Both the position numbers and the translations under genes were made by a program. Below are positions 11,279 to 40,134 of a stretch of 64,000 bases of DNA, one piece after another. Each line of letters begins with the position of its first letter. The first letter of the stretch is position 1. Location of the stretch: positions 911-64,910 of the forward strand of contig CAZVZR010000006.1 in NCBI GenBank assembly GCA_964630825.1. The letters run 5' to 3'. Source of the stretch: an uncultured Planctomycetales bacterium (GTDB lineage: Bacteria > Omnitrophota > Gorgyraeia > Zapsychrales > Zapsychraceae). The notes beneath the pieces are model-generated. The model did no database searches. It was not told the origin of the DNA and saw only the letters and a program-made list of their open reading frames with translations.

Positions 11279-11288
11279 TTTAACTTTT

Positions 11289-11954: not shown

Positions 11955-11995
11955 AACCCTCTGGGAAATAATAATTCCCAGAGGGTTTTTATTTT
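11955..11995 (+). terminator. rho-independent terminator
   Basis: 13-bp stem AACCCTCTGGGAA/TTCCCAGAGGGTT with loop ATAATAA, followed by TTTTTATTTT. Confidence 0.7.
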
Positions 11996-12048
11996 GGCGG
12001 ATTTATAAAAATTAATTTTGATCAGGTTTACTTTACAAGGGAGGGGGA

Positions 12049-12918
12049 GTGAAAGTTTCTGCGCTTAAGAGTTTTGTTTGCCCAGTTGATGGACAGACAT
12101 TGCTTAAAGAAAATAAAATCTTTCGGTGTGGCAAGGGACATGTTTTTGATGTGGCCCGTGAGGGGTATTGCAATTTTCTCTTGGTACAGCAAAAGGCTTC
12201 ACTTGATCCGGGAGATAGCAAAGAAATGGTCGCTGCCCGGCGGCGGTTTCTCAATGAAGGGCATTTTGCCCAGCTTGCGGAGCATTTGTTTGAGCATGTT
12301 TGTAAAGTGATAAAGAAGCTGAATCACAGTATGCCGTTGCGGATTGTGGATGCCGGCTGCGGAGAAGGGTATTATTTGCATCAATTGAGTAAACTTGCCG
12401 CTGCAAACAAGCAAACAGCAAGCCTTGAACTCGCCGGATGTGATATTTCAAAGTGGGCGGTAAAAGCTGCGGCGAAACGATCGAAAGAAATTGCCTGGGT
12501 GGTGGCGGGAAATCGCCGATTACCGTTTGCGCCGGGCACAGTGGATTTAATTCTTTCTATTTTCGGTTTTCCGGATTGGGAAAATTTTAAAACGGTCCAG
12601 CCCAGCGGTGGCCGTGTGTTTTTGATTGATCCCGGGTCGGATCATTTGATCGAATTGCGGAAGATTATATACCCAGAGGTAAATTTGAGCCAGCTGCGTT
12701 CGCTTAAAACGGCAACGGAGGGTGGGTATATTTTGGAGTCGAACGACCAGCTTAAATATTCAGTGAGCCTTGAAAATAATTCGTCAATTCAGGATCTGCT
12801 GGCAATGACCCCGCACGCTTTCCGGATAACGCCAAAGGCACGGGAAGAAATTAGAACGTTAAAACGGTTGACCGTATCCGTGGATGTAAGGTTTCGAATT
12901 TTATGCCGAGGGCTTTAG
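12049..12918 (+). CDS. rlmA: 23S rRNA (guanine745-N1)-methyltransferase
   Basis: Strong SD GGGAGGGGGAG followed by a GTG start. N-terminal Zn-binding FVCPVDGQTL…FRCGKGHVFDVAREGYCNFL parallels E. coli RlmA (CPLC…CPQRHQFDMAKEGYVNLL). Also DAGCGEGYY, RLPF and DLIL motifs. Confidence 0.85.
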   Translation: MKVSALKSFVCPVDGQTLLKENKIFRCGKGHVFDVAREGYCNFLLVQQKASLDPGDSKEMVAARRRFLNEGHFAQLAEHLFEHVCKVIKKLNHSMPLRIVDAGCGEGYYLHQLSKLAAANKQTASLELAGCDISKWAVKAAAKRSKEIAWVVAGNRRLPFAPGTVDLILSIFGFPDWENFKTVQPSGGRVFLIDPGSDHLIELRKIIYPEVNLSQLRSLKTATEGGYILESNDQLKYSVSLENNSSIQDLLAMTPHAFRITPKAREEIRTLKRLTVSVDVRFRILCRGL

Positions 12919-12922
12919 AAGA

Positions 12923-14107: not shown

Positions 14108-14331
14108 GCTGATGGCATTTTATGTTTAATTTGGAGTATGGTAAATATAAAGATTCTTTTATTTGTGTTCTATTAAAAGCCTCCCAGAAAATATTTTTAA
14201 TATGAAAAAGGAAAAACGTTGGACATAAACTGCAGCCGGAACTAATTAAAGTCAGGTTTTGTTTTCTCCTTGTCAGGAAGTTAAAGGCTCTCCCAAACAT
14301 AGTTGACAAATTTTTATCTAGGGGTAAGAAT

Positions 14332-16746
14332 ATGGCTTACATGTCTACGCCAAACCATAATGCGCCAGGCTGGCCAGGCCTTCCTCCGCGTTTGACATCA
14401 AGTGCGAAGACCGGTGTCGGCACGGCGCACAATCATCAAAGCCCATTGTGGTTTACTCTCAGCCATGGGACTTTAAATGAACTTTATTATCCCGGTATTG
14501 ATCAAGCCGCTACCCGCGATATGGAGTTTATCATCACCGATGGAAAGAATTTTTTTTCAGAAGAGAAAAGGCATGCCCAGAGCCGTACAGATTATTTGAT
14601 AGAAGGAGTCCCGGCTTATCGACTCGTTAACACTTGCCACCAGGGTTTCTATCAAATCGAAAAAGAAATTCTCACCGACCCCACCCGGCCTGTTTTATTG
14701 CAGCGATCCCGATTCAAATTATTGAAAACGATGGAAGGTAGTTATCATTTATATGTTTTATTGGCGGCTCATTTGAGCAATTTTGGCTCTGGAAACACTG
14801 CCTGGGTTGAAGATTACAAAGGTGTTCCCATGGTGTTTGCTAAAAAAGATGGGAATGCATTAGCCTTGGCCTGTTCTGTTCCCTGGCTTAAACGGTCAGT
14901 GGGATTTGTGGGGGCTTCCGACGGATGGCAGGATTTAACGGCTAACAAACAATTGACACAGGAGTATCTGCTTGCCGAAAATGGCAATGTGGCGCTTACC
15001 GCTGAGATTGATCTAAAGCAAAGCAAAGGAGAATTTATCATCGCCGTAGGGTTCGGTGATGATGCTGCCGAAGCGGCCAATCGAGCGCGTGCCTCATTGC
15101 AAGAAGGTTTTGATAGCGCGCAAAAAAATTATGTTGATCGATGGAAAATTTGGCAAAAATCTTTGCTTAGCTTGGATAAGAAACAAAAAGGCGAGTATGG
15201 AAATATTTATCGGGCCAGTACGATGGTCATGCGTTCTCATGAATCGATGAATTTTCCGGGTGGGATGATTGCCAGCCTTGCTGTGCCATGGGGTTTTAGC
15301 AAAGGGGATGAAGATTTGGGCGGTTATCATTTAGTGTGGCCGCGCGATTTAGTTGAAACAGCCGGTGGTCTTTTGGCAGCCGGAGGAAATGAGAATGCTC
15401 GTCGTGTACTTGGTTTTTTAGAAGCTACTCAAGAAAAAGATGGGCATTGGGGGCAGAACATGTGGTTAGATGGCACTCCTTATTGGAGCGGTATTCAGAT
15501 GGATGAAACTGCTTTGCCAATCCTTTTAGTAGATTTGGCATGGCGTGAAAAGGCGTTAACCAAGGAAGACAGGTTAAGATTTTGGCCCATGGTCCGGCAA
15601 GCGGCAATTTATTTGCTTCGTAACGGCCCGATAAGTCCCCAAGATCGCTGGGAGGAAGATGGGGGTTATACTCCCTTTACAATTGGTGCAGAGATCGCCG
15701 CACTACTAGCCGCAGCCGAGATGGCGGATTTAAATAATGAAGCATCCATGGCCACCTATCTACGAGAGGTTGCGGATAATTGGCACGCTGCTATCGACCG
15801 TTGGCTGTATGTTTCCGATACCGACTGGTGCCGCAAATACAATGTGAAAGGATACTACATCCGTCTCGCGACGATGAATGCCGGCGTAGAAGTACCTTCT
15901 CAAGAAAATGTGTTAATAAAAAATGTGACTTGTGATAAAGCCGTTCAATTGGCGGATCATTTGATCAGTCCTGATGCTTTAGCCTTGGTGCGTTTTGGTT
16001 TGCGTGCAGCGGATGATCCGCGAATCCTTGACACGGTCAAAGTTATAGATGCTTTATTAAAAACGGATATGCCTCAAGGAGCTATTTGGCACCGTTACAA
16101 CGGCGACGGTTATGGCGAACATGAGGACGGTTCGCCCTTTGACGGCACAGGGATCGGCCGGGCGTGGCCACTGCTCACCGGCGAGCGGGCGCATTATGAA
16201 GTTGCCGCCGGGCAGACAAGCCAAGCGAATAAACTTTTAACGGCATTAGAGAATTTTGCCAATGAAGGCGGTTTGATTCCGGAGCAAATCTGGGATGCGG
16301 CGGATATTCCCGAGCGTGAGCTTTATTTCGGCCGGCCTTCCGGATCAGCTATGCCTTTGGTTTGGGCGCATGCTGAGTATGTTAAACTGTTGCGGTCTCT
16401 GCGCGATGGAAAAGTTTTTGATATGCCGCCGCAAACCGTCCGTCGCTATTTAGTTGAAAAGAAAACCTCCCCGCATATATTGTGGAGATTTAATTATCAG
16501 CGCAAATCAATGCCTTGCGGTAAAATACTGCGCATTGAAACAATGGCACCGGCGGTTATTCATTGGAGCGTGGATAATTGGAAAACATCTTTGGATGTCA
16601 AGGCGAGTGATACGGGGCTGGACATTTACGTTGCTGATTTGTCGACGCAGATGATCTCTGAGGGATCAGAAATTAAATTTACTTTTTATTGGCCGCAAGC
16701 CGACCGTTGGGAAGGCGCAGATTTTTCTGTTCAGGTGGCTTCTTAA
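14332..16746 (+). CDS. glycoside hydrolase family 15 glucoamylase / glucodextranase-like enzyme (~800 aa bacterial type)
   Basis: N-terminal beta-sandwich region LWFTLSHGTLNELYYPGIDQAATRDMEFIITDG. Central (alpha/alpha)6 region with WEEDGGYTPFT and GAIWHRYNGDGYGEH. C-terminal beta-domain. A near-consensus TTGACA lies 23 nt before the ATG. Confidence 0.7.
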   Translation: MAYMSTPNHNAPGWPGLPPRLTSSAKTGVGTAHNHQSPLWFTLSHGTLNELYYPGIDQAATRDMEFIITDGKNFFSEEKRHAQSRTDYLIEGVPAYRLVNTCHQGFYQIEKEILTDPTRPVLLQRSRFKLLKTMEGSYHLYVLLAAHLSNFGSGNTAWVEDYKGVPMVFAKKDGNALALACSVPWLKRSVGFVGASDGWQDLTANKQLTQEYLLAENGNVALTAEIDLKQSKGEFIIAVGFGDDAAEAANRARASLQEGFDSAQKNYVDRWKIWQKSLLSLDKKQKGEYGNIYRASTMVMRSHESMNFPGGMIASLAVPWGFSKGDEDLGGYHLVWPRDLVETAGGLLAAGGNENARRVLGFLEATQEKDGHWGQNMWLDGTPYWSGIQMDETALPILLVDLAWREKALTKEDRLRFWPMVRQAAIYLLRNGPISPQDRWEEDGGYTPFTIGAEIAALLAAAEMADLNNEASMATYLREVADNWHAAIDRWLYVSDTDWCRKYNVKGYYIRLATMNAGVEVPSQENVLIKNVTCDKAVQLADHLISPDALALVRFGLRAADDPRILDTVKVIDALLKTDMPQGAIWHRYNGDGYGEHEDGSPFDGTGIGRAWPLLTGERAHYEVAAGQTSQANKLLTALENFANEGGLIPEQIWDAADIPERELYFGRPSGSAMPLVWAHAEYVKLLRSLRDGKVFDMPPQTVRRYLVEKKTSPHILWRFNYQRKSMPCGKILRIETMAPAVIHWSVDNWKTSLDVKASDTGLDIYVADLSTQMISEGSEIKFTFYWPQADRWEGADFSVQVAS

Positions 16747-19074: not shown

Positions 19075-19785
19075 ATGTTTCTCATTGAACATATGAAAAA
19101 TACACATCCGATGTTGCTATGGTCAACGATTGGTTTTTTGATTGTGATTACTACCTATGTAGTTTTTGATAGGACACATTCCTTTTATAAACTTTCTTGG
19201 GTCGGTGTCCGTTTTTTTGATGAAGGTAAATATTCAAGAGCTTTACCTTATCTTTTGGGTGCTTATCGGATGAACCCCGAAGATAAAGTTATTACCTGGA
19301 AGCTTGTGTGGGCGTATCAAAAACTCGGCCGTGATAGCGAAGCACGCCGTATTCTGGAAGAAGTTAACGCCAGGTATCCGGCTGATCCAAAGTTAAGTGA
19401 GTCCTTAGGGGATGTGGCTTATTCCGCACAGGCTTATGATATTGCGCAGAGAAACTATCAACGCGTCCTGGCACGAAAACCGTCGGCAACGGTCCGTAAA
19501 AAATATATTAATGCACTCTTTGCGCAAAAGAAATATATTGATGCGATCAATCAGATGGATATTTTGCTTGCCCGAATGCCCGATGATCAGCAGCTGCGTT
19601 TCCAGCATGCACAGATTATTTCGGCGATTGGTGATCACGAACGGGCGGTTAGGGAACTGGAGTCTTTATTAGATAACGGGTTTGACAAAAAAGAAGTCGT
19701 CATCATGCTGGCGGATGAGTTGCGCCTTTTGGGACGCGATGAAGAAGCCATAAAAATTTATGAGGGGGTCAATCATGAAAAATAA
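19075..19785 (+). CDS. TPR-repeat protein with N-terminal TM anchor (module Y of the exopolysaccharide export TPR set)
   Basis: N-terminal TM. TPR-like helices. The C-terminal ~150 aa are paralogous to the C-terminus of 19760..20677. Confidence 0.65.
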   Translation: MFLIEHMKNTHPMLLWSTIGFLIVITTYVVFDRTHSFYKLSWVGVRFFDEGKYSRALPYLLGAYRMNPEDKVITWKLVWAYQKLGRDSEARRILEEVNARYPADPKLSESLGDVAYSAQAYDIAQRNYQRVLARKPSATVRKKYINALFAQKKYIDAINQMDILLARMPDDQQLRFQHAQIISAIGDHERAVRELESLLDNGFDKKEVVIMLADELRLLGRDEEAIKIYEGVNHEK

Positions 19786-20677
19786 AAAAGTTATAGTATC
19801 CAGCATTTTACTGTTTTTAGCCTATTTTACTTTTCCGGTTTATGGTGACGATGCGTTTTCACTTGAGGACCGGGCAAAAATGGGGGAGGTTTATAGTTTA
19901 GAACGATTGAAAAGATACGATGAAGTCAAGCCGATGATCGCCGATCTGTATAAGCGTTATCCTAATAACAAGGAAGTCAAGTGGACTTACGCGCGTATCT
20001 GGGGGTTTGGCGGGGATTGGAAAGCGGCGCAGACAATTTTCGATGAATTATGCGCCAAGGAATGTGATCCAGAAATGGTTTTAACTTATGGGCATATTTT
20101 GGAATCACAGGGTCCCAAGCCAGAAACATTGCTTTATATAAAGAAATTGGTTACTCAGCATCCGGATCAGAAGGAACTTCAGCCGATATATGCAGAAATA
20201 TTATCATGGAATACCCAAGACCCCAAAGGGCGTGATGCTATTGGAGACTTAAACGCTCAATTCCCGGATGACCCTCAAATAATAGAAGCTTTAGGCGATA
20301 TAGCTTATGCCTCTAAGGACTTTGCCCATGCACAGGAATATTATGAAAAAATTTCAGGAAAAGAAGCATCTCCCGGTATACGTAAAAAATATATTGATGC
20401 GCTGTTGGGAGAAAAAAAATACACCGAAGCAATCAGCCAGATGGATACCTTGCTTTCCGCTGCGCCCAATGACCAGGATTTACGTTATCAACATGCCCAG
20501 GTTATTGCTGCGACAGGAAAACATGAACAGGCTGTGAAAGAACTGAAGAGTTTAATGCAGGAAGGATTTAATAAAAAAGAGGCTATGGTGATGCTCGGCG
20601 ATGAGCTTCGCCAGTTGGGGCATGACGATGAGGCCTTAAAAATTTATAAGGAGGTAAATAATAATGAAAAAAAATAA
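19760..20677 (+). CDS. secreted TPR-repeat protein (modules X+Y)
   Basis: Signal peptide. The N-terminal half is ~60% identical to the N-terminus of 20664..22595 (DRAKMGEVYSLERLKRY…KWTYARIWGFGGDWK…). The C-terminal half is paralogous to 19075..19785. Confidence 0.7.
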   Translation: MRGSIMKNKKVIVSSILLFLAYFTFPVYGDDAFSLEDRAKMGEVYSLERLKRYDEVKPMIADLYKRYPNNKEVKWTYARIWGFGGDWKAAQTIFDELCAKECDPEMVLTYGHILESQGPKPETLLYIKKLVTQHPDQKELQPIYAEILSWNTQDPKGRDAIGDLNAQFPDDPQIIEALGDIAYASKDFAHAQEYYEKISGKEASPGIRKKYIDALLGEKKYTEAISQMDTLLSAAPNDQDLRYQHAQVIAATGKHEQAVKELKSLMQEGFNKKEAMVMLGDELRQLGHDDEALKIYKEVNNNEKK

Positions 20678-22595
20678 TTACTTATTTTTATTAGTTTTTG
20701 TTTTTTGTGTGGGGCTCGCCGGCAAGGTATATGGTGAGGAACCTCTTTCTATCGAGGACCGGGCAAAGATAGGAGAGATATACAGTTTGGAACAAATGAA
20801 GAGATATCAAGAAGCGAAACCTAAGATTGAAGACTTGCATCAGCGCTATCCAGATAATCGAGAAGTAAAATGGACGTATGTACGGATTTTGGGATTTGGC
20901 GGAGATTGGAAAGAAGCGATGGCGGTTTTCGATGAATTATGTTCCCCTAAATGTGACCCGGAGATGCTTATTACATATGGGCATATCTTGGAAGCGCAGG
21001 GCCCCAATCCGGAAACGTTGGAACAGATGAAAAGCCTTGTTGATCGGTTTCCGGACCAGTCAAAGCTCCAAGTCATCTATAATAAAATGCAATCTTGGAG
21101 TAATAATCCTCCACAAACTGAATCAGCAGAATCTCTCCCATCCGACAAAGACAACTTACCGGCGAAAAATATGGGAAAGACTGCTCACCAACATGTTTTT
21201 AAGGAAATAGTAGGAAAGTCGGACGAATTATTAAAAACTAACCCCGATGACGAAGCGGCGCTGTTGCATAAAGCGCAGGCTCTGAGTTGGCAAGGAGATT
21301 TGCGCTCCTCGATAAAGCTGTATAAAAAATTAATAAAAGACCATCCTGACGAAGTTTTATACTACCGTGAAGGCGCACGTGTCATGGGCTGGGCAGGGAA
21401 GTTTTTTGAAGCTTCTAGTTTATACGATCGAGCTTGTCAGCGCTTTCCTGACGATTTAGCGCTCAAAGCGGAAGCATCGGCCAAGAAGGCTTATTACAAT
21501 GATTTATTTTTTCTGGCGGAAACAGAATATAGTAATTGGCTGGCCATTGAGCCGGGCAATCCGGAAGCCTTATTTGATTTAGGTCAGATCCATGCCCGTG
21601 CTAAACGCTATGCGGCCGCGCAAAAAGATTATGAAGATCTTCTTACTGCCATTCCGGATAATAACCAAGCGCAGATGGTTCGTGACAAAGCTGATATTTA
21701 CGCGCACGGATGGCTGACGGAGACAGGATATCAACGCCGTGAAATCGACAGTCAATCTCGACAGGCGGATGTGCGGTTAAACGATATTTCCACACAAATA
21801 AGGAAATCGTTTCTAGGGAACATGTTGATTGGTGTCAAGTTTGATGAAATGGAATATGCTTTTATGGATCCTTTTCCCAATGTCCATCGCCAGCGCTATT
21901 TAGCTTCTGTGGAAAAAAATTTTTCACCCGATACTTTTTGGAAAGCCGGCTATGGGTTGAGCCAATCTACGGAGGATATAAAAGATTTACAGTACCGTGA
22001 CGCAGAAGTGCAGTTCCCATTTTTTACGGAACGGTTTTTATGGGATGTTTCCTATAAACGGGATGATATGATCCAAAATGCTTCAACAATGCTCAACCAT
22101 CTGCAGGATGATGAATACCGCCTACGCACGACAATAAAGCCGGTTAAGTTTCTTGAAATCGGCAGTGACGGAACCCAGGCTCATTTGACCGATGGCAATG
22201 ATTTTGAATCTTGGGGCGGTGATGCAGCGGTGCATTTGTCCTATGATCCTAAACGGTTGACCTTAAAATATCGTTGGCAAGATTTGCGTTATGATGAATC
22301 TAACCCAGCATATTTTTCTCCGGGTAATTTTATTTCTAAAAGAGTATCCGTCGAATGGCAGCAATCTTTAAATAAAAGAAATGCTTATTGGGGTGCAGAT
22401 CAATTTTGGTACCTCTTAAGGTATGAGTTAATTATGGACCCGGGGGATGTCCGCGGCCATATGGGCACAGTAGGAATTAATTGGGATATTAACAAAAGAT
22501 TGACGCTGCGCGCCGAGGGGCAGCGTATTTTTTATGAAAATTCTAATATTTACGATGATACGTTAGGGACAACCTCTCTTCTGTTTAATTTCTAA
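20664..22595 (+). CDS. TPR domain fused to a C-terminal outer-membrane beta-barrel (BcsC/PgaA-like polysaccharide export porin)
   Basis: Signal peptide. An N-terminal ~330-aa TPR region. The C-terminal ~250 aa alternate hydrophobic and polar residues and end in …SLLFNF (terminal Phe, the OMP C-terminal signature). Confidence 0.6.
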   Translation: MKKNNYLFLLVFVFCVGLAGKVYGEEPLSIEDRAKIGEIYSLEQMKRYQEAKPKIEDLHQRYPDNREVKWTYVRILGFGGDWKEAMAVFDELCSPKCDPEMLITYGHILEAQGPNPETLEQMKSLVDRFPDQSKLQVIYNKMQSWSNNPPQTESAESLPSDKDNLPAKNMGKTAHQHVFKEIVGKSDELLKTNPDDEAALLHKAQALSWQGDLRSSIKLYKKLIKDHPDEVLYYREGARVMGWAGKFFEASSLYDRACQRFPDDLALKAEASAKKAYYNDLFFLAETEYSNWLAIEPGNPEALFDLGQIHARAKRYAAAQKDYEDLLTAIPDNNQAQMVRDKADIYAHGWLTETGYQRREIDSQSRQADVRLNDISTQIRKSFLGNMLIGVKFDEMEYAFMDPFPNVHRQRYLASVEKNFSPDTFWKAGYGLSQSTEDIKDLQYRDAEVQFPFFTERFLWDVSYKRDDMIQNASTMLNHLQDDEYRLRTTIKPVKFLEIGSDGTQAHLTDGNDFESWGGDAAVHLSYDPKRLTLKYRWQDLRYDESNPAYFSPGNFISKRVSVEWQQSLNKRNAYWGADQFWYLLRYELIMDPGDVRGHMGTVGINWDINKRLTLRAEGQRIFYENSNIYDDTLGTTSLLFNF

Positions 22596-22610
22596 AAAAA
22601 AGAGGAGGCA

Positions 22611-24167
22611 ATGATGGATAATCGTGGATCACAGCAATGGGTCAATAATTATTCTTGTCCGGCAACGGTCTTGGTCTTTGTTTTGTTAATTTTTCTTGTT
22701 AATTATGTATTTTTTCGTTTTATTTTTTTGTATTTTGCATCATGCACGCCAGCGGAGAAGCTTTTGGCTTCTGGCTTTTGGGCCGCAGAGTTATTTATCA
22801 TGCTCCATGCGGTTGGGTATTATTTCAATGTTTTGCGTTTAAACCGCAACCCGGATATCACCTATCCGAAAATGCCGGGGGAAGAGCCATCGGTTGCGAT
22901 CTTGATCCCTGCCCGCCATGAGCCCCGCGAAGTGGTTGAGCAGACGCTCTTGGCTTGTTACAACTTGGATTATGAGAATAAAACGATACACCTTTTGGAT
23001 GATTCATCCATCGAATCCTATAAAAGGGAAGCGCGAGAACTGGCTGCAGAATACGGCGCTTCGGTATTTTCGAGAGATGTTCATCGTGGGGCCAAGGCCG
23101 GAATTATCAACGAATGCAGCCAAGCCTTAACGGAGAAATATATCGCTATCTTAGATGCTGACCAGAATCCAATGCCGCACTTTCTTAAAGTCCTTGTCCC
23201 GTTTCTAGAACAAGAAGAAAAACTTTCTTTTGTGCAGAGTCCACAATTTTATACCAATGGCAACGTTAACAGTGTTTCTTTAACGTCGAATTATCAGCAG
23301 GGAATTTTTTATGAATACATTTGTGAAGGAAAGAGCCGCAATGGAGCGATGATGTGTTGCGGCACTAATGTTGTGCTGCGCCGAGAAGCATTGATGGAGG
23401 TGGGCGGGTTTGATGAGAGAACCGTGACGGAGGATTTCGCCACTTCCTTGTGGCTGCATATCCATGGGTGGAAATCTTTGTACGTCAATAAGCCTTTGGT
23501 TTTTGGCATGGCTCCCGAAGACTTAATAGCATATTTTAAGCAGCAATCCCGCTGGTCGATGGGCAATACGCAAGTGTTTAAACATGTTATTAAATTATTT
23601 TTGACTCAACCATGGAGTCTCACTTTAAGGCAATGGTTTGAATATTTTATTACAGGGACGTATTATTTTATCGCCTGGGCATATTTATTTTTATTTGTTT
23701 TTCAGCTCATTTACACATTCTTCAATGTTCCCACGTTTTTTATGGATCCTTATGTTTACTCGACAACTTTTGTCCCATATTTCTTGCTGGCACTGGCGGT
23801 TTTTTATTCAAGTATGGGCCTGCGTAATTATGCGTTTTCCAATGTCCTTAAAACACACCTTTTGACAATATTATCCATTCCTATATATATCAGGTCGACA
23901 TTGTTTGGGCTTTTCAATATTCACGCCGGATTTCAGGTGACGCCTAAAACAGGCTCCGTACAGGTGCCGTACTTGTTTTTATGGGCACAGTTATTTTTGT
24001 GGGCGCTTAATTTGGTAGCTATGACGTGGGGTCTTTTAAGATGGGTTTATGAAAGAAATTTAGGAATCCTTTTCAATGTTTTTTGGTTGTTCTATCATGC
24101 GTTGATCTTTTCATCGATATTTTATTTTAATGAACAGGATAACCAGGAATTGGGAGAGGCATTATGA
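22611..24167 (+). CDS. processive family-2 glycosyltransferase (cellulose-synthase/PgaC-like beta-glycan synthase) with no PilZ domain
   Basis: Two N-terminal and several C-terminal TM helices. Catalytic motifs LDDSS (D,D), DADQNP (DxD), VTEDFATSLWLH (TED) and QQSRWSMG (QxxRW). There is no C-terminal PilZ. Confidence 0.85.
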   Translation: MMDNRGSQQWVNNYSCPATVLVFVLLIFLVNYVFFRFIFLYFASCTPAEKLLASGFWAAELFIMLHAVGYYFNVLRLNRNPDITYPKMPGEEPSVAILIPARHEPREVVEQTLLACYNLDYENKTIHLLDDSSIESYKREARELAAEYGASVFSRDVHRGAKAGIINECSQALTEKYIAILDADQNPMPHFLKVLVPFLEQEEKLSFVQSPQFYTNGNVNSVSLTSNYQQGIFYEYICEGKSRNGAMMCCGTNVVLRREALMEVGGFDERTVTEDFATSLWLHIHGWKSLYVNKPLVFGMAPEDLIAYFKQQSRWSMGNTQVFKHVIKLFLTQPWSLTLRQWFEYFITGTYYFIAWAYLFLFVFQLIYTFFNVPTFFMDPYVYSTTFVPYFLLALAVFYSSMGLRNYAFSNVLKTHLLTILSIPIYIRSTLFGLFNIHAGFQVTPKTGSVQVPYLFLWAQLFLWALNLVAMTWGLLRWVYERNLGILFNVFWLFYHALIFSSIFYFNEQDNQELGEAL

Positions 24168-25315
24168 AAAGAATATTTCTTATGTTGCTCATCGGATTTA
24201 GCGGATTTTTCTTGGTTGCCTGGCTTTTATCGCTGCGGGAAAATGACGATGTCCATCAAACCTCCCAAAAGCTGGAAGAGTCCTGGGCTGGTTTTAAGGC
24301 GTATTTTATACGTTCAGACGGGGCGGTGGTCCGTCCTCATGAACAAGATATTACCTCGGAAGGACAAGCCAACGCTATGCTCAGGGCTGTTGTCATGGGA
24401 GACCACGACACGTTTGAACGTGTCTTCCAATGGACTCAAAATAATCTTTCGCGAAAGAAAACTGCAGGAGATAATTTATTATCATGGCATTATAAAGACA
24501 ACATTGTCCAGGACACAATGCCTGCGACAGATGCAGACATTGACTATGCTTTAGCGCTTTTGCTAGCATCGGAAAAATGGAAGAATGACGCTTACAAAGA
24601 AGTAGCGCAGCAGTCCTTAAAAGATATTTTGGACCGGCTCACGGTCGTTTTTAAGTACCGTCGGTATCTTTTGCCTTGGTTTGTGGAGTCGCCGGCAAAT
24701 CAGGAAAAGATTCCCCAGAACCTTTCTTATTATTCCCCGGCTTATTTTAAATTATTTAACACATTCGATCATGACCCGCGCTGGTTGGAGTTGGTAGACA
24801 CCACCTATATCCTTTTGTTGCAAGCTCAAAATAATTTTGAGGGAACAACAGGATGCGGGTTGGTACCGGATTGGTGTGTCGTTGACCGTAAAGGGTCGCT
24901 TCATCGTTATGAAGCGAGGTCTTCTGATTTTTCCTGGGAGGCGGTCCGGGTACCATTTCGTATAGGTATTGATGCATTTCTCTATAATGATCCACGCGCA
25001 ATAGAAGTTTTATCGGGTTTCGCCAATTTTGCCACAGCGGAATTAGACAAAAACAAAAAGCTTGTTAGCGGATATAGTTATGAATGTAAACCATTGCCCA
25101 ATACTGAGGAAAGCCCATTGATCTATGCTGCTTTTTATATGGCGCTGGAACTGACGGACAACCGGTACGCTTCAGAAAATATTAATAAACTGCGCCAATG
25201 GTTTCACCGAAGTTTGAAAGGAGGTTATTATAAGGACACTCAGGAATATTATCTCAACAGCCTCGTCTGGGTGGCCGAACTTTTACGCCGGGAGAAAATT
25301 CATGACCAAAAATGA
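24164..25315 (+). CDS. glycoside hydrolase family 8 (BcsZ-like endo-beta-glycanase), periplasmic
   Basis: Signal/TM anchor. GH8 catalytic TSEGQANAM. GH8 signature ATDADIDYALALLLASEKW. Overlaps the upstream stop (ATGA). Confidence 0.8.
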   Translation: MKRIFLMLLIGFSGFFLVAWLLSLRENDDVHQTSQKLEESWAGFKAYFIRSDGAVVRPHEQDITSEGQANAMLRAVVMGDHDTFERVFQWTQNNLSRKKTAGDNLLSWHYKDNIVQDTMPATDADIDYALALLLASEKWKNDAYKEVAQQSLKDILDRLTVVFKYRRYLLPWFVESPANQEKIPQNLSYYSPAYFKLFNTFDHDPRWLELVDTTYILLLQAQNNFEGTTGCGLVPDWCVVDRKGSLHRYEARSSDFSWEAVRVPFRIGIDAFLYNDPRAIEVLSGFANFATAELDKNKKLVSGYSYECKPLPNTEESPLIYAAFYMALELTDNRYASENINKLRQWFHRSLKGGYYKDTQEYYLNSLVWVAELLRREKIHDQK

Positions 25316-32928: not shown

Positions 32929-33549
32929 ATGACTACGGCAACAAAGGTGAAATGGAATATTGAAGCAGATTTTTATCAGGGATGTAATTGCAACTACGGA
33001 TGTCCGTGCGAATTTGAAGCGCCACCCACGATGGGGTATTGCGAGGGCCTTGGAATATGGAAGATAAATAAGGGAAAATACGGCACAGTCTCCCTCGATG
33101 GGTTAGGGCTCGGGTTTTCTGCGCATTGGCCCAAGGCCATTCATCAAGGGAACGGTACGGCGGCTATCTTTGTGGATGAAAAAGCCAGCAAAGAGCAGCG
33201 CGAGGCTCTGTTAAATATTGCATCGGGACAAGCCGGTGGTTTACCTTTTGAAATTATTGCCACAACTTTTTCAAAAGTGCTGGACCCGTTTTTTGTCCCG
33301 TTTAAGTTTAATGTTCAGGGAAGGAACGCGACGGCTAGCATGGGGGACAAAGTGTCATTATCGTTGGAACCAATCAAAAATCCTGTTAACGGGGAACCGG
33401 AAAGCCTGACGATCGAACATGAGACGGGGTTTATTTTCAAAAAAGCAGAATGTGTTTCCGCAAAAGTTTGTAATTCTAAGGTCGATGGGTTGACGTATTC
33501 CTGGCCGAACAAAAGCGGATTTATCAGCAAGATCAGCTATCAAAATTAA
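32929..33549 (+). CDS. DUF1326-like protein with Cys-rich N-terminal motif
   Basis: ~206 aa, soluble. N-terminal YQGCNCNYGCPCEFEAPPTMGYCEG. Its partnership with the following DUF2182-like membrane protein matches the pairing recalled for these families. Confidence 0.5.
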   Translation: MTTATKVKWNIEADFYQGCNCNYGCPCEFEAPPTMGYCEGLGIWKINKGKYGTVSLDGLGLGFSAHWPKAIHQGNGTAAIFVDEKASKEQREALLNIASGQAGGLPFEIIATTFSKVLDPFFVPFKFNVQGRNATASMGDKVSLSLEPIKNPVNGEPESLTIEHETGFIFKKAECVSAKVCNSKVDGLTYSWPNKSGFISKISYQN

Positions 33550-33550
33550 T

Positions 33551-34321
33551 ATGTCTGTCCCCAGTTTTTCATTTAATGATTTTAAAAATGAGCGTGGTGT
33601 TGTTTTCGCCGCGCTGGTCGTCTTATCTGCGCTGGCATGGTGGTATACGATTTACTTGGCAAAAACCATGAATTGCTGCACCTTTGCCATCAAAGGCACA
33701 TGGCATTTCTGGAACGCTCAGCAATTTTGGCTGATGTTTGTAATGTGGGCGGTAATGATGGTGGCAATGATGGTTCCGACCATTACGCCCATGATTTTGG
33801 TCTTTGCTATGGTTAATCGTAAACGCCATGAACAGGCCAAGACATATGTTTCGACGGGATTTTTTCTTCTTGGCTATTTGATCGTGTGGGCAGTTTTTAG
33901 CCTATTAATGACTTTATTGCAGGAATGGCTGCAGGCGCGCGCGTTTATCTCGGTGCACATGGTGTTGAATAAACCAATCATCAACGGAAGTCTTTTGATA
34001 CTAGCCGGGATTTTTCAGTGGACACCGCTTAAAAATAAATGCCTCACGCATTGCCGCTCACCGTTTGATTTTATTATGACGGATTGGCGCGATGGTACAG
34101 GCGGGGCCGTGATGATGGGGCTTCGTCATGGGATGTTCTGCCTAGGCTGCTGCTGGCTGTTGATGTTACTGCTTTTTGTGGGCGGCGTTATGAATATTGC
34201 CTGGATTGTTTTTTTAACGGTCTTTGTTCTGGGGGAAAAAGTTTTTCCACGAGGCCGCCTGATTAGCCGTATGGCGGGCGTGTTTTTTCTTATTTGGGGT
34301 GTCATTAATTTTATGTTTTAA
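33551..34321 (+). CDS. DUF2182-like predicted metal-binding integral membrane protein
   Basis: 6-7 TM helices. Cys/His clusters CLTHCRSPFDF and CLGCCW. Starts 2 nt after the previous stop. Confidence 0.45.
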   Translation: MSVPSFSFNDFKNERGVVFAALVVLSALAWWYTIYLAKTMNCCTFAIKGTWHFWNAQQFWLMFVMWAVMMVAMMVPTITPMILVFAMVNRKRHEQAKTYVSTGFFLLGYLIVWAVFSLLMTLLQEWLQARAFISVHMVLNKPIINGSLLILAGIFQWTPLKNKCLTHCRSPFDFIMTDWRDGTGGAVMMGLRHGMFCLGCCWLLMLLLFVGGVMNIAWIVFLTVFVLGEKVFPRGRLISRMAGVFFLIWGVINFMF

Positions 34322-34365
34322 CACAAAACAGGGCCCGTCCCTAATTATTAAGGAGAAAAGCGAAA

Positions 34366-35123
34366 TGATTCTAAGAAAAATTCCATCAGTTTGGTTCAAA
34401 ATCGGCATGGTGCTTGTTTTAGCACTTTTTTATACCGCTTGCGCGCATGCCCAGGGTGCTTCTCTGGATACTTCAAACTATTTGGCATCTTTGCCAACCC
34501 AGCCCAAAACTCTTTGGCAGCTAATTCTTGCCGGAGGATGGACGATGTTTTTTATCGGGCTTTTATCCCTTGGCGGCCTAGCTTTGGTTATCTATGATTT
34601 TAGAACGATTGATGTTAATAAATTAGCCCCGCGGAAATTCTGCGAAGATTTGATTAGTAAGTTGGAAGAAGGCAGCCTTGCTTCGGTTAAGGGGTTTTGC
34701 CAGAAAAACAATAATATCATCTCGCGGATTGTCCTCGCGGGAATTGAAAAAAATCAGAAAGGGAAAAGCGGAGTTATCGTCAAAGAAGCGATGGAAAATA
34801 CCGCGCGAATTGAAATCGCCTCGCTTTGGCAGAACATCAGCTACTTTTCCGACATCGCGCAAATTGCGCCGTTACTGGGATTATTGGGAAACGTGTTAGG
34901 GATTATCCAGGCCTTTAACGTTATCGTGGTCCAATCTGTTGGAGTTAAGGCCACACTTCTAGCCGGCGGTGTGGCTAAGGCCATGGTCACGACAGCTTTC
35001 GGACTGATAGTGGCAATTCCAACACTTGTCTTCTACGCCTATTTTCGCGGGAAAGTACAGGAAGTCACTAATATCGTCGGTACATACACCGATGATGTGA
35101 TTAAAATTATGGAAAAACTTTAA
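34366..35123 (+). CDS. exbB: MotA/TolQ/ExbB proton-channel family protein
   Basis: Signal peptide, periplasmic segment and 3 TM helices. Conserved C-terminal GGVAKAMVTTAFGLIVAIPTLVFYAYF. SD AAGGAGAAAAG before the ATG at 34366. Confidence 0.8.
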
Positions 35124-35143
35124 ATTCACATACGGGGGACATT

Positions 35144-35569
35144 ATGCCTAAATTTCAAATTTCCGAATACCAAACGCAAAAACCGAATATCCAGCTTGCG
35201 CCTTATGTGGACATTGCTTTTATTACCCTCATTTTTTTTATGACGATTGCTGTTTTAAACCAAATGGAATCTGAGGTGAATATCAATGTCCCGAAAGCCA
35301 GTATGGCCACCCAGTCAACACGGAGCGCTGGGAAGATGATCATCAACATTACCAGCGACGGAAGGTTTTTCGTCAATCAAAAGCAACTGACGCGCGTCGG
35401 GCTTGAAGGCATGTTAAAGGAAGTGTCGCGGCTCTTCCCGAACCAGCAAATTATTATTCGTGCCGATGAAAACGCATATCACAAGTATGTTATTGAAGCT
35501 TTAGATACCTGCATGCGCGCCAATATCTGGGATGTTTCCTTCTCGACTATACAGGAAGAAATTAAATGA
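35144..35569 (+). CDS. exbD: ExbD/TolR biopolymer transport protein
   Basis: LAPYVDIAFITLIFFMTIAVL single TM, followed by a periplasmic domain. Typical ExbD length of 141 aa. Confidence 0.8.
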   Translation: MPKFQISEYQTQKPNIQLAPYVDIAFITLIFFMTIAVLNQMESEVNINVPKASMATQSTRSAGKMIINITSDGRFFVNQKQLTRVGLEGMLKEVSRLFPNQQIIIRADENAYHKYVIEALDTCMRANIWDVSFSTIQEEIK

Positions 35570-37920
35570 AACCGTTTGCGAAGTTTGTTCTTAGTAGTCT
35601 CGCCTTTACATTGTGTATCTTTTTATCTCTTACGTTACCCGCCCAGGAAATTTCTCAGCAGGAAACGGAGGCAATTGATTTCGCGCACGGGCTTCTTGAG
35701 CGCGAGATGTTCGACATGGCGATCGCTGAATACCAGAAATTCATTACGGATTATCCGCAGAGTTCCTTGCAGGATGAAGTTTATTTTTCTATTGGAGAAG
35801 CGTATTTTTTGTCCCAGAGATTTCCGCAGGCCATAGAAGCTTTCAATACAGTCAAACAAAAATTTCCCAACTCGCCGCGTTCGGCAATGGCTGCGCTGCG
35901 TTTGGGTCAGATTTACGCTGAGCAGGGTAATTTTAACATGTCTTATAATGAATTAACCGCGAAAGATTTTTCCGGTCAACTGCAGGGCGCAACAGTGCAG
36001 GCATACTATTATTATTTAGGGAAAGCAGCCTTGGGAAAAAAGGATGCTGCCACAGCGCTGGCAAATTTTGAAAAAGCGGCTCAGGTTACCGGTACGAATG
36101 CTTACACAAGTTATGCTTTGGAAAAAGTCGCCGAGATTCAGGCCCAAGACGGGCATTTCAACGAAGCAACCGTTGCCGTCACTAAGGCTTTGGCAGCTAC
36201 GCAAGACGCGGATTTTAAAAGGATACTTACTTATAAGCAGGGCGAAATATTGTTTCGTTCCGGGAAATATGAAGAATCCATTCCTTATTTTCAGCAAATC
36301 CTTGACCAATTCCCGAATTCAGAAACAGTATTTCAGGCCGTCAGTAATTTATTGCTGGCCAATTTTAATTTAAAGAAATTTGAAGAAGTTATTTCCGTGT
36401 ATAAAAAATATGCGGGAGTTGTTAAAGATGCCGAAAATTATTTTGAAGCGCATTTCGCGGCCGCGCGTTCTTACGCGGGGCTTCAACAGTATGATGAAGC
36501 TTTAGCACTCCTCGACAAAACCATTTCATTCCCGGGCTTGAAGAATGAAGATTTATGCCGCGCCAACTTGCAAAAGGCAAACATCCTTATCAAGAAAAAA
36601 GAATATGCGCAAGGCTTGGCATTAATTGAAAATCAGTGCGGTTTATGTGCTCAAGAGCCTGACCAAATAAACTTTTTGAAAGCTCAGGCCAATTTTGGAA
36701 TAGGAAATTTTCAGAAAGCATATGAGTTTTTTCTATCCGTTACTACGGCGTACCCTGATTCGATGTATGCCTCCGCCGCGCGGCTTGGCGCGGCCCACGC
36801 CGAACGGGAATTAGGAAAGGGCATGGAAGCCGCGGATGAATTCCTATCTTACGCGGAATCGGAAAGCGATGCGGCCCTAAAAAGCGATGCCATCTTTAAC
36901 GCTGCCTTAGTCCTGGCCCAATCCCATCAGGAGCAAAAAGCCATTGAGCAGGCAGAGCGTTACTTAAAAGATTTCTCCAAAGAAGTTGATTACGAAAATG
37001 TCATTTTACTTCTCGGTGAACTTTATGCCAAAACCAGCCAATTCAACGCCGCCATAAATCTTTTGCAAGGATACTTGGCTGACCCCAGCCACGTCAAAAG
37101 GATGGACAAGGGGCAATTTCTTTTAGGGTATAACCTTCAGCTTCTGGGAAAAACCGATGAGGCTTTGGCCGTTTATGAAAAAATTGTTGCCGATCCCAAT
37201 GATCAGCAATTTTTCCTGGCGGGGCTTAAAAATTCCGCTGCCGTTTGTTTGAGCCGCGGCGAAGAATCGCGTGCGGCGGTATATTTTGAAAAAATTATCA
37301 CCGCTGCTGAAAAAAATGATTTGGATTCCGCGACGTACTTTTGGGTGATCAACCGGTATCTCAAGGATGAAAAATATAATGATGTTTTACGCATTGTGGA
37401 TAAAGTTGCGGCGCGGTTTCCGGATCAACCAGCGCAGCAACTCGATTATTTTAGGGCAGAGGCGTACCGTGGCCTTAAAGATTTTACCAATGCCCAAAAA
37501 TATTATGACACCGTCATTGCTTCAACGGAAAAAAATACCTATACCGCCGGGGCCATCATTGGGAAAGGCCTGACTTTTATGGCCACAAATCAATTGGACG
37601 AAGCGCAGAAAGAATTTGATAAAGCGATGGATGACTACCCCAATGACCACACGGTCACTTTGCGCGCGCGCCTTGAGGCCGGCAATATTGCTCGTCGGCA
37701 GAATAAGCTGGATGAAGCGTTAAGGTTTTATCTTCTGGTTGGGACAATTTATCAAGATAAGGAATATTGCCCTCAAGCCTTGATGGCTGCCGGGGAAATC
37801 CTCGAGGGGGCCGCCCGTAAAGAAGAAGCCTTGAAGGTGTATCAACAGGTCACTGCGCAATATCCCAATAGTGCCCAGGCGCCGCAAGCTAAAGAAAAGA
37901 TTTCGTCTCTTACAAAATGA
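35566..37920 (+). CDS. large periplasmic TPR-repeat protein (784 aa)
   Basis: Signal peptide. At least 12 TPR-like helix pairs. Overlaps the exbD stop (ATGA). Confidence 0.7.
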   Translation: MKPFAKFVLSSLAFTLCIFLSLTLPAQEISQQETEAIDFAHGLLEREMFDMAIAEYQKFITDYPQSSLQDEVYFSIGEAYFLSQRFPQAIEAFNTVKQKFPNSPRSAMAALRLGQIYAEQGNFNMSYNELTAKDFSGQLQGATVQAYYYYLGKAALGKKDAATALANFEKAAQVTGTNAYTSYALEKVAEIQAQDGHFNEATVAVTKALAATQDADFKRILTYKQGEILFRSGKYEESIPYFQQILDQFPNSETVFQAVSNLLLANFNLKKFEEVISVYKKYAGVVKDAENYFEAHFAAARSYAGLQQYDEALALLDKTISFPGLKNEDLCRANLQKANILIKKKEYAQGLALIENQCGLCAQEPDQINFLKAQANFGIGNFQKAYEFFLSVTTAYPDSMYASAARLGAAHAERELGKGMEAADEFLSYAESESDAALKSDAIFNAALVLAQSHQEQKAIEQAERYLKDFSKEVDYENVILLLGELYAKTSQFNAAINLLQGYLADPSHVKRMDKGQFLLGYNLQLLGKTDEALAVYEKIVADPNDQQFFLAGLKNSAAVCLSRGEESRAAVYFEKIITAAEKNDLDSATYFWVINRYLKDEKYNDVLRIVDKVAARFPDQPAQQLDYFRAEAYRGLKDFTNAQKYYDTVIASTEKNTYTAGAIIGKGLTFMATNQLDEAQKEFDKAMDDYPNDHTVTLRARLEAGNIARRQNKLDEALRFYLLVGTIYQDKEYCPQALMAAGEILEGAARKEEALKVYQQVTAQYPNSAQAPQAKEKISSLTK

Positions 37921-39584
37921 AAATAAAAAAGATAAAAAGAAAAATCCTGTATTCGCTCTTAATTTCCCTGCTGATCCATTTGGGATTTTTGTGCTGGAGT
38001 TATTTTGTCAAAATTTTTTCCATCACCAACGAAATCCCGCCCGCGCCCACTCACTATCTCCAATTGAAATTGACCAATGATCCGCATTTGGGCGAAAGTT
38101 TTTCCAAAGGTGAAAAGGAAGAGTTGGAAGACCGTACGCTCAATCCTGAGAAGTCAATTCAATCAACGGACATGGCCAACAACTTTGAGCAAGACAGTAC
38201 AAAAACGCAGCAACAGATCTCGTCGGCTGTGGACCAGGCGCAAGAGCCGCCGGTGAAACCAAGCCCCGACCAGGCGCCCGAAGCCCGCATACCGCAGGTG
38301 AAAGATGAAGCTGTGCACCAGCGCGTTTTAAGGGCAACACGCAAAAACCTCGTTGAAATTGGGGAAGCTCCGGCAAAGGACACCGTGGTGGGGGCGCCGA
38401 CTGCCGTTGCGGGAAAAGATATTTCCGAGAAATATTTAGAAAATAACCGAGCCGATAAGACGAATTCAATTTCACCAGCCCTTGAGTATGCGGGGTCTCC
38501 CAACGGTTTTCAGACGATGAAAAAAACAAACTCGGGGCTGCAACGCAGGTTAAAGACAGCCGATTTAGGTTCGTCGTTAACCTATGAGATTTCTGTTTAT
38601 CAGGACCCGAAAACCAAGGAGAAATTTTTCAAACTGCAGGTCCGGGTCATGGATATGTCGGCAGTTTTGCCTGTGATCCCGAAAGAAATCGTAATTCTTC
38701 TTGATTCATCAAGAAGTATCGGCGATGAGCGGCTCACGCAATTTAAGAAAGGCATCGAGTATGTTTTGAAACATTTAAACCCGGATGACCGTTTTAATAT
38801 TACGATTTTTAAAAACCTGACGTTTCCTATGACCCCTATTTCCATGAGCCCGGATGAGAAAAATATCAAAAGGGCGATCGCGTTTATTACGGATTTTAAA
38901 CCCGGAGAAACAACCGATGTTTACTCGGCGATCAACGGAACTCTCAACTTAAAAGATGCACGTAATCCTTCTTACCGCCTATTGCTGAGTGATGGTTTTG
39001 CGACGGAGGGAGTCACCAATTCACGCCAGGTAATTAATGAAATATCGGATATCAATAAAGGGAAGGTTGGTATCTTTGCTTTTAGCGGCGGGACGTTTGT
39101 GAGCCAGTATCTTCTTGATTTTATCGCCTACAAAAATCGCGGATGGACACAGTATACAAACCGTGAAAATCTGATCGGAGAGGAACTTGGTAAAATGTAT
39201 GACCGGATCCGGGACCCCTTGTTATTGAACCTGCGTTATCATATCAGCGGAGTGAATGCGAAAGAGGTATACCCCAAAGTCTTGCCGGATTTTTTTAAAG
39301 GGTCAGAATTTGTGATTTACGGGACTTTCACGAATGAGGATATCGTTGCCGTCCGGCTTTTAGGGGATGTGATGGGCGAGGTGAAGGAATTCTATGTCAC
39401 GGCATCACTTAAAAGTGCTGCTTCCGGAAACGCAAGCATTGCCTATCAATGGGCGTTTCATAAAGTTTATGATTTGATAGGGCAGCTTAAGCATAATGAA
39501 AAAAATGAAGAAATCCTCAAATCAATTGATGGGCTTTGCGACCGTTTTCATATTGAAACTCCCTATTCAAGGAATTTTCGATAA
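37917..39584 (+). CDS. membrane-anchored protein: N-terminal TM, Pro/Ala-rich linker, von Willebrand factor A domain (MIDAS DSSRS)
   Basis: TM LYSLLISLLIHLGFLCWSYFV. Linker QEPPVKPSPDQAPEARIPQ. VWA region VILLDSSRSIGDE…LLSDGFATEG. Sits in the operon position usually occupied by TonB. Its start overlaps the TPR gene stop. Confidence 0.6.
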   Translation: MKIKKIKRKILYSLLISLLIHLGFLCWSYFVKIFSITNEIPPAPTHYLQLKLTNDPHLGESFSKGEKEELEDRTLNPEKSIQSTDMANNFEQDSTKTQQQISSAVDQAQEPPVKPSPDQAPEARIPQVKDEAVHQRVLRATRKNLVEIGEAPAKDTVVGAPTAVAGKDISEKYLENNRADKTNSISPALEYAGSPNGFQTMKKTNSGLQRRLKTADLGSSLTYEISVYQDPKTKEKFFKLQVRVMDMSAVLPVIPKEIVILLDSSRSIGDERLTQFKKGIEYVLKHLNPDDRFNITIFKNLTFPMTPISMSPDEKNIKRAIAFITDFKPGETTDVYSAINGTLNLKDARNPSYRLLLSDGFATEGVTNSRQVINEISDINKGKVGIFAFSGGTFVSQYLLDFIAYKNRGWTQYTNRENLIGEELGKMYDRIRDPLLLNLRYHISGVNAKEVYPKVLPDFFKGSEFVIYGTFTNEDIVAVRLLGDVMGEVKEFYVTASLKSAASGNASIAYQWAFHKVYDLIGQLKHNEKNEEILKSIDGLCDRFHIETPYSRNFR

Positions 39585-39629: not shown

Positions 39630-40013
39630 ATGATTAAAGTCAGCTACAACAAGGAACACAACGCCATCGTTATCGAATTCATCGGGGAAGTTGATGCCGC
39701 GCAGGGAGAGCAACAGATCCTCGATATCAAGAAGGCCATCCCTAAAGACAAAAAAGGTTTCACGCTTTTGGTCGATTTGACTTTAGTTGAGAAAATGGAC
39801 CCAAAAGTCAAAGGGTCAATCAAAAAAGCTATGGACCTCTTAAATGTTAATGGCGTTACGAAAATCTTCCGGGTAATCCCCAATCCCGAAAAAGATATAG
39901 GGCTTAACATCATGTCTTTTTTTCACTATTCCCCAACAGTCAAAATTGTTACTCTGCCATCACGAAAAGATGCGCAGGCGCTCTTAAAAAGCGAAAAAGG
40001 AGATTATGTTTAG
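39630..40013 (+). CDS. small hypothetical protein (possible STAS-like fold)
   Basis: 127 aa, soluble. The STAS-fold suggestion is an unsupported guess. Confidence 0.3.
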   Translation: MIKVSYNKEHNAIVIEFIGEVDAAQGEQQILDIKKAIPKDKKGFTLLVDLTLVEKMDPKVKGSIKKAMDLLNVNGVTKIFRVIPNPEKDIGLNIMSFFHYSPTVKIVTLPSRKDAQALLKSEKGDYV

Positions 40014-40134
40014 AAAAATGATTTCGTTAGTTCTGTGTTGTTTAATGTTGGTCACAATCTCCGGATGCGGTTTATTGAGTACCGTACTTAGCGCCGCGGC
40101 TGCTTATGGAATTTATCGAGTAACGCATCACTAA
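40006..40134 (+). CDS. 42-aa lipoprotein (entericidin-like size), not in the ORF track
   Basis: MFRKMISLVLCCLMLVTISGCGLLSTVLSAAAAYGIYRVTHH* has a lipobox ISGC. It begins 8 nt before the previous stop. SD-like AAAAGGAG lies upstream. Confidence 0.4.
   Translation: MFRKMISLVLCCLMLVTISGCGLLSTVLSAAAAYGIYRVTHH

Follow-up and report, generated by a model that had tools for sequence, protein, structure and literature searches.

Layout and conservation of the cassette

The stretch of DNA analysed here, a 64,000-nucleotide window on contig CAZVZR010000006.1 of the uncultured Omnitrophota assembly GCA_964630825.1, carries on its forward (+) strand four consecutive genes that place an ExbB/ExbD-like motor next to a large tetratricopeptide repeat (TPR) protein and a TonB/TolA-like transducer ending in a von Willebrand A (VWA) head. 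An exbB/tolQ-like motor subunit gene (34365..35123; 252 aa; PF01618, E = 2.8e-29) is followed by an exbD/tolR-like one (35144..35569; 141 aa; PF02472, E = 4e-23), by the gene for a secreted all-TPR solenoid (35566..37920; 784 aa; TPR Pfam families over residues 33–776) and by that for the transducer (37917..39584; 555 aa), whose only Pfam matches are VWA_3, VWA and VWA_2. All four had been recognised in an earlier sequence-only reading of the region, and their open reading frames (ORFs), common strand and domain assignments hold. The overlapping stops which that reading described are present as ATGA start/stop overlaps between exbD and the TPR gene (35566–35569) and between the TPR and VWA genes (37917–37920), whereas exbB and exbD stand 20 nt apart with no overlap. 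The exbB start, previously placed at 34366, was off by one; the gene begins with the ATG at 34365, behind a ribosome-binding site (AAGGAG) at 34350. Promoter and terminator scans did no better than on shuffled sequence.

This arrangement recurs throughout the family. More than 200 homologues of the transducer were found, all of about 550 aa and, where named, all assigned to Candidatus Omnitrophota. A scan of species-representative genomes returned 80 loci, 74 of them family loci, and the order exbB-exbD-TPR-VWA on one strand is present in every one of the 55 family loci with at least 3.7 kb of upstream sequence (55/55), with median intergenic gaps of 13, 9 and −4 nt between successive genes. 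The remaining 19, which are short of upstream sequence, are consistent with the same order as far as they reach. Because order and strand are identical in all 55, the arrangement is not a product of chance, and the neighbourhood survey that had been suggested as a check on the sequence-only reading finds the VWA gene always in an exbB/exbD cluster. The order holds down to 28% VWA-protein identity, and every locus has a single exbD/tolR-like gene. Clustering of 994 ORFs from 81 loci yielded no fifth conserved gene and no recurrent outer-membrane protein, TolB or Pal partner; all other clusters occur in at most 14 loci, and additional conserved partners were therefore rejected.

A profile of transducer residues 1–250 was compared with 1.84 billion representatives and matched 110 clusters, 76 of them at E <= 1e-10, nearly all of about 535–600 aa or fragments. 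The profile was never joined to a different kind of domain, and the possibility that the N-terminal module also serves other heads was rejected. To judge from these matches, the transducer family is narrow, uniform and apparently lineage-specific. The weakest hits of the genome scan, from Poribacteria, Obscuribacterales, Fibrobacter and a deltaproteobacterium, are VIT-VWA proteins of 690–920 aa without a motor, and the outgroup relatives L082 and L084 begin with VIT-like sequence.

The transducer, the motor-like subunits and the TPR protein

The AlphaFold2 (AF2) model of the 555-aa protein, built on 86 homologues, has three parts, namely a transmembrane (TM) helix, a disordered stretch and a globular part. 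The sequence-only reading had proposed a TonB-like layout with an N-terminal TM anchor and a proline-rich linker. The layout is borne out by a TM helix over residues 2–30 (37920..38006, +; predicted local distance difference test score (pLDDT) 85–97) and a long periplasmic linker over residues 32–216 (38010..38564, +), which is disordered with pLDDT < 50 over residues 35–216. The linker as a whole is not proline-rich, with 15 Pro in 185 residues (8%), the enrichment being confined to the patch quoted in that reading. Missed at the time was an S-x3-H motif within the TM helix, which is present in 104 of 109 full-length homologues; in the family alignment of 86 sequences, whose members are 32–51% identical to the window protein, H21 (37977–37979, +) is invariant and S17 (37965–37967, +) is at least 90% conserved. 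This motif is the core of the SHLS motif, in full S-x3-H-x6-L-x3-S, by which TonB and TolA bind their motors (PMC12204202), and its conservation strengthens a reading of the protein as coupled to the motor. About 17 residues past the helix lies a conserved F-x-V-K (residues 48–51; YLQLKLT in the window, 38055..38075, +), at the post-TM position that matches the 'motor box' beta-strand of TolA and TonB (PMC12204202). Three further islands are found in the linker of the family: K-F-E-x-P at residues 76–80, K-x2-R-x-T-R-x2-L-V at residues 136–146, with R139 at least 90% conserved, and S-x2-F-x-D-K-M-P-G-x-T-P at residues 170–183, which has diverged in the window. Conserved islands inside a disordered linker are typical of docking peptides.

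An invariant polar His in a TM helix, within S-x3-H, would be difficult to account for in a simple signal anchor, and for this reason operon neighbourhood without coupling is unlikely. Such a reading would take the TPR and VWA proteins as a Bat-like or ITIH-like (inter-alpha-inhibitor heavy chain-like) interaction module and would place the TonB or TolA that serves this ExbBD/TolQR pair elsewhere in the genome. Pairs of VWA and TPR proteins without motors do occur, in the Bat operon, and a weak BatC-type TPR match (1e-4, 22 bits versus a cutoff of 175, NCBIfam) and the motor-less VIT-VWA proteins that are the nearest outside relatives of the head point in the same direction; however, MoxR or DUF58 genes are absent from the window, from loci L001/L003 and from the clustered loci, the genes overlap or nearly abut in 55/55 loci, and the N-terminal module profile is never found on another kind of domain. 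We regard the uncoupled arrangement as very improbable.

The C-terminal part of the transducer is a globular ITIH-like head (38565..39581, +) predicted with high confidence (pLDDT > 90 over residues 217–555) and composed of a beta-hairpin (residues 221–244), the VWA domain (257–431; 38685–39209, +), a beta-sandwich (434–497) and a helical C-terminus (506–554). The first match of the head in a Foldseek search of the PDB is inter-alpha-inhibitor heavy chain 1 (6fpy, E = 8e-24), and lower down are integrin domains and VWA-plus-sandwich proteins of ArnB or Sec23/24 type; none of the PDB matches has the C-terminal fold of TonB or TolA. Pfam gave no match to TonB_C or TolA_C in the 555-aa protein at E <= 0.01, and NCBIfam gave none either, and a TonB_C/TolA_C identity of the C-terminus is thus ruled out by Pfam, NCBIfam and the fold search. 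The metal-ion-dependent adhesion site (MIDAS), read earlier as an intact 'DSSRS' in a VWA domain standing in for the TonB C-terminal domain, corresponds to D263-x-S265-x-S267 (38703–38717, +) and is completed by T333 (38913–38915) and D359 (38991–38993). All five residues are invariant among the 86 sequences, and this claim of the sequence-only reading is confirmed. The VIT-VWA 'sortase target' model TIGR03788 matches residues 225–550 at 1e-30, below the NCBIfam threshold, and the alignment covers model positions 241–561, that is, past the VIT region of the model. The head was most likely recruited from VIT-VWA proteins.

The same reading had held that the architecture is absent from described systems. 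This claim of novelty fails because 'vWA force transducers' beside tolQ/tolR-like and TPR genes were reported computationally in 2025 (Mol Biol Evol 2025 msaf138; PMC12204202). These proteins are described as anchored by a TM helix that contains SHLS and as ending in a vWA domain, with a motor box in the disordered linker between the two, and AlphaFold3 (AF3) models put their TM His where TonB and TolA contact the motor (PMC12204202). The phyla in which they were found are Proteobacteria, Planctomycetes, Verrucomicrobia, Bacteroidetes and Rhodothermaeota, and Omnitrophota is not among them (PMC12204202).

The ExbB-like subunit begins with a cleavable-looking signal peptide, followed by three TM helices; long-form ExbB proteins likewise begin with a signal-peptide-like segment. 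Its best NCBIfam match is TolQ (TIGR02796; 84.7 bits versus a cutoff of 221), and its best PDB sequence matches are TolQ (8vlw and 9avi), followed by ExbB (5sv0). The ExbD-like subunit scores 61.5 bits against TolR (TIGR02801; cutoff 127.3). Both motor subunits score slightly higher against TolQ/TolR than against ExbB/ExbD, and all scores are far below the equivalog cutoffs. Going by sequence comparison, the cassette subunits form a separate branch of the ExbB/TolQ-ExbD/TolR family. At the column of ExbD D25 and TolR D23, all 60 of the 60 cassette orthologues have Asp, which in the window is Asp23 (35210–35212) in the TM helix of the ExbD-like subunit; this comparison uses E. coli ExbB, TolQ, ExbD and TolR reference sequences, and the re-check against PDB sequences covered the key ExbB columns. 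The second pore Thr of ExbB (the T181 column) is kept in 57 of 57 sequences.

Matches to TPR families indeed extend along the whole of the protein described earlier as a 784-aa periplasmic TPR protein. Its Sec signal peptide (residues 1 to about 26) is followed by a conserved E-x-(L/I)-D-F-A-x-G-L motif (E-Q-L-D-F-A-x-G-L), and all orthologues have a Sec-type signal peptide with an A-x-A-like cleavage site and no lipobox. TIGR02795 (YbgF/CpoB-type repeats) matches five stretches with 182 bits versus a cutoff of 90. The AF2 model, built on 14 sequences (mean pLDDT 89), shows 41 helices, or about 20 helix pairs, stacked into one unbroken solenoid in which no domain other than TPR is seen, and its Foldseek neighbours are generic long TPR scaffolds only. 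TPR partners are familiar in this context, CpoB being the one in Tol-Pal and GltC/D/E those in the Agl-Glt machinery. They recur with the motor superfamily, and in Agl-Glt the disordered linker of GltG has been modelled as wrapping the TPR protein GltD (PMC11761067). We infer that the conserved linker islands of the transducer dock on the TPR solenoid.

A proposed mechanism and its alternatives

We think it likely that the four genes encode a periplasmic force-transduction cassette specific to Omnitrophota, driven by the proton-motive force (PMF) and consisting of a motor, an S-x3-H tether, a TPR scaffold and a MIDAS grip. In this mechanism, the ExbB-like and ExbD-like proteins would form an inner-membrane motor of the 5:2 type, and the TM helix of the transducer would dock on the outside of the ExbB pentamer via S-x3-H, as in TonB and TolA, while the periplasmic domain of ExbD would engage the post-TM F-x-V-K motif. 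The disordered linker of about 185 aa would then cross the periplasm with the TPR solenoid to assist or organise it; this solenoid may be an obligate periplasmic scaffold, to which the conserved linear motifs in the linker probably bind. At the far end, the VWA head would use its MIDAS metal ion to hold on to an acidic residue of a ligand in the envelope, probably an outer-membrane-associated one, and motor activity would pull on the bound ligand. The output is most likely an envelope-mechanical task, that is, Tol-Pal-like tethering or remodelling of an outer-membrane component and not substrate import. An adhesion or anchoring device is plausible; as the head is predicted to lie in the periplasm on an inner-membrane tether, whatever it adhered to would have to be part of the envelope, and it would make no direct contact with an external surface.

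Several observations weigh against such a motor-coupled cassette. Only the S and H of SHLS are kept in the transducer family; the +11 column, which is Leu in TonB and TolA, is Ser or Ala, and the +15 column after the Ser, which holds their final Ser, is Lys or Arg. At the proposed motor box, AF2 and DSSP show coil (pLDDT about 40) and no strand. The TM3 Glu of canonical ExbB and TolQ is conserved and functionally important, and the column of ExbB E176 and TolQ E173 is Lys (49/57) or Gln (8/57) in the cassette proteins, which include the orthologues of L005–L078, and never Glu. Lys205 (34977–34979) occupies it in the window, and the alignment with PDB chains agrees, with 'giaEal' in solved TolQ/ExbB versus 'gvaKam' in the window; as far as the alignments go, this Glu-to-Lys change is a charge reversal specific to the cassette motor branch. 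The first pore Thr of ExbB (the T148 column) is kept in 56 of 57 sequences, and the sole exception is the window itself, with Asn176. The codon of Asn176 is AAC at 34890–34892, where solved ExbB/TolQ chains have Thr, and the residue may be genuine variation, may mark a motor that is impaired or may stem from misassembly. Given the Lys/Gln substitution and Asn176, the motor may work differently or may be impaired in the window genome. Furthermore, no ligand, outer-membrane partner, TolB or Pal gene was found near the cassette in the window or the 81 loci, and no experiments or phenotypes are available for any vWA transducer (PMC12204202).

A more specific version of the force-transduction reading is that the cassette substitutes for Tol-Pal in the energised attachment of outer membrane to cell wall and in outer-membrane constriction at division, the VWA head standing in for TolA domain III and the TPR protein serving as an enlarged CpoB/YbgF. 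The best scores of the motor subunits, which are against TolQ/TolR models and TolQ structures, would fit this role, but they lie far under the equivalog cutoffs (85 versus 221 and 62 versus 127 bits). The TIGR02795 (YbgF) match of the TPR protein (182 versus 90 bits) and a synteny that stays strict among relatives with as little as 28% identity, as would befit a housekeeping role, also speak for it, yet no tolB or pal gene adjoins the cassette in the window or in any locus examined, and a conventional Tol-Pal locus is listed for the 'Omnitrophica' genome OLB16 (supplement of PMC12204202). A separate Ton system coexists with the cassette in locus L003, which is likewise in keeping with a Tol-type role. 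In this locus, from another Omnitrophota genome, the cassette is directly followed by a cluster (9974–16390) of TonB-dependent receptor, ExbB, ExbD and TonB_C genes that also includes a periplasmic binding protein and a FecCD/ABC importer. Because this canonical Ton cluster adjoins it, the cassette is not the Ton system of that organism but a further system beside it. Replacement of Tol-Pal is possible on this evidence, although we lean against it.

The component types also match those of the Agl-Glt machine (a TolQ/R-like motor, a TonB-like tether, TPR scaffolds and a VWA adhesin), and, like integrin-type domains that bear force, the head has an intact MIDAS. A machine for adhesion, gliding or host attachment, in which the motor drives an integrin-like adhesin that may attach to prey or host, would therefore be conceivable for a phylum described as host-dependent or episymbiotic (bioRxiv preprint 2026, 10.64898/2026.06.07.730766). 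However, the VWA domain is fused to an inner-membrane anchor, unlike the outer-membrane lipoprotein CglB, no outer-membrane barrel or Glt-like genes recur with the cassette, and nothing points to exposure of the VWA domain at the cell surface. Such a surface machine is improbable in our judgement. A still bolder form of the force-transduction reading deserves mention as a long shot, namely a proton-powered, integrin-like catch-bond device that would pull, through the tether, on a MIDAS-metal-carboxylate bond with a partner in the outer membrane and would serve Omnitrophota as a lineage-specific, Tol-Pal-independent means of outer-membrane tethering or host/prey gripping, in which case the Glu-to-Lys ExbB would mark a mechanistically distinct 5:2 branch.

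Ton and Tol are, to our knowledge, the only well-understood routes by which inner-membrane energy reaches the outer membrane in Gram-negatives. The cassette, if it works as proposed, would add a third output module, and the 5:2 motor with its S-x3-H tether would be a reusable platform with interchangeable heads, in this case an integrin-like VWA domain that depends on metal. The cassette may further be relevant to envelope upkeep or partner attachment in these very small, host-associated bacteria.

The genes around the cassette vary between loci. A DUF1326 gene and a PpoB2 (copper chaperone family) gene (32929–34321, +) end 43 nt upstream of exbB in the window and are not kept beside the cassette in other loci. 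The same is true downstream of the VWA gene (region 39630–40133, +) of a 127-aa protein with faint STAS/anti-sigma-antagonist similarity (E ~ 0.007) and of a 41-aa ORF (40009–40133, +) with a lipobox-like 'ISGC'. One subclade (L008, L009, L014, L018, L051 and related loci) continues by a start/stop overlap into the gene for a secreted retropepsin-like protein of about 200 aa (D-T-G-S), with a Tyr-rich secreted protein and a small lipoprotein further downstream; the window has none of these three genes. A few kilobases downstream of the cassette in L074, a distant genome whose VWA protein is 33% identical to that of the window, genes at 10701–16467 resemble those of the flagellar rod and ring (FlgF/G-like and others, judged from N-terminal sequences); if so, at least some carriers are flagellated. 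Two other loci of the window were also recorded. A 1500-aa ORF (48994–53496, +) fuses a complete RND pump (ACR_tran, residues 3–1021, 1.5e-296) to TolC-like OEP domains (best-matching stretch residues 1314–1494, 1.1e-54), an unusual union of inner-membrane pump and outer-membrane channel in a single polypeptide, and has an HlyD-type adaptor gene just upstream (47881–48987). The region 19075–25315 (+), with three consecutive TPR proteins, a family-2 glycosyltransferase (22611–24167) and a GH8 glycosidase (24164–25315), looks by its gene content like a cellulose-synthase-like (Bcs-type) exopolysaccharide cluster.

Comparison with known systems

The head has its best structural match in ITIH1 and bears the integrin-like MIDAS of the ITIH and VIT-VWA proteins (TIGR03788 sortase targets), but it lacks the VIT domain (no Pfam VIT match), only a beta-hairpin preceding the VWA domain, and the N-terminus is a TonB-like anchor and tether in place of a secretion or sortase signal. 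The Bat (aerotolerance) operon differs in its MoxR, DUF58 and BatA/BatB-type VWA genes, which are not present in the window or in L001/L003. The Agl-Glt system of Myxococcus shares with the cassette a TolQR-type motor, TonB-like tethers (GltG/J), TPR scaffolds (GltC/D/E) and a VWA adhesin (CglB). There, however, the VWA domain belongs to an outer-membrane/surface lipoprotein of its own, each tether terminates in a TonB_C-like domain and at least 17 proteins are involved, compared with four in the cassette; no GltA/B/H/K barrels or other Glt outer-membrane genes recur near the cassette in the 81 loci.

Tol-Pal (TolQ-TolR-TolA-TolB-Pal-CpoB) is approached by a motor marginally nearer to TolQ/TolR, by the YbgF/CpoB-type TPR protein in the operon and by the TolA-like topology of the transducer. 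The TolQ/TolR equivalog cutoffs are not reached by the motor genes, TolA domain III, tolB and pal were not found in the 64-kb window, and the TPR protein of the cassette, a plain secreted solenoid, is three times as long as CpoB. Likenesses to the Ton system are the ExbB/ExbD-family motor followed by a single-pass S-x3-H protein with a long periplasmic spacer, and the ExbD TM Asp and ExbB pore Thr that are conserved across the cassette family. The cassette differs from it in having neither TonB_C nor a TonB-dependent receptor of its own, and in the Lys/Gln that replaces the TM3 Glu of ExbB.

The closest comparison is with the vWA transducers themselves, of which two families have been described; our literature search on Omnitrophota together with ExbB or TonB found nothing on the cassette. 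In the second family, TPH-vWA (trans-pore helix), the vWA protein replaces TolR, with an Asp-bearing trans-pore helix and no tolR/exbD gene (PMC12204202). The cassette does not fit this description, since it has an ExbD gene bearing the TM Asp and a transducer with no Asp in its TM helix. With the vWA family of Tichowtungia aerotolerans it shares the TM Ser/His, a disordered linker with a post-TM motif, a VWA domain in place of TonB_C, and TolQ-like, TolR-like and uncharacterised TPR genes alongside the transducer. Membership in that family was nevertheless rejected on a weak hhalign match limited to the VWA core (the 86-sequence profile versus Tichowtungia transducer 2, retyped from the supplement with small errors possible, gave a probability of 27% over 135 VWA-core columns). 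The two also differ in the MIDAS, which is FILDANK in Tichowtungia and an invariant D-x-S-x-S in the Omnitrophota family, in the head, whose ITIH-like beta-sandwich and helical extension are not shared by the Tichowtungia family, in the linker (about 185 versus about 100 aa), in the position of the TPR gene, between motor and transducer in the cassette and upstream of the motor in Tichowtungia, and in the gene complement, with one ExbD and one transducer as opposed to two TolR and two transducers.

The window system is thus a new version of the published vWA-transducer kind, in a phylum that was not listed for it (PMC12204202), and its VWA head appears to have arisen independently of the vWA transducers of the Planctomycetes-Verrucomicrobia-Chlamydiae (PVC) group. 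As a compact four-gene cassette with one ExbD, one transducer, an intact MIDAS and a clear set of conserved residues (S17, H21, R139 and the MIDAS of the transducer, D23 of ExbD and K205 of ExbB), it offers a cleaner target for reconstitution, structural as well as biochemical, than the two-transducer PVC loci.

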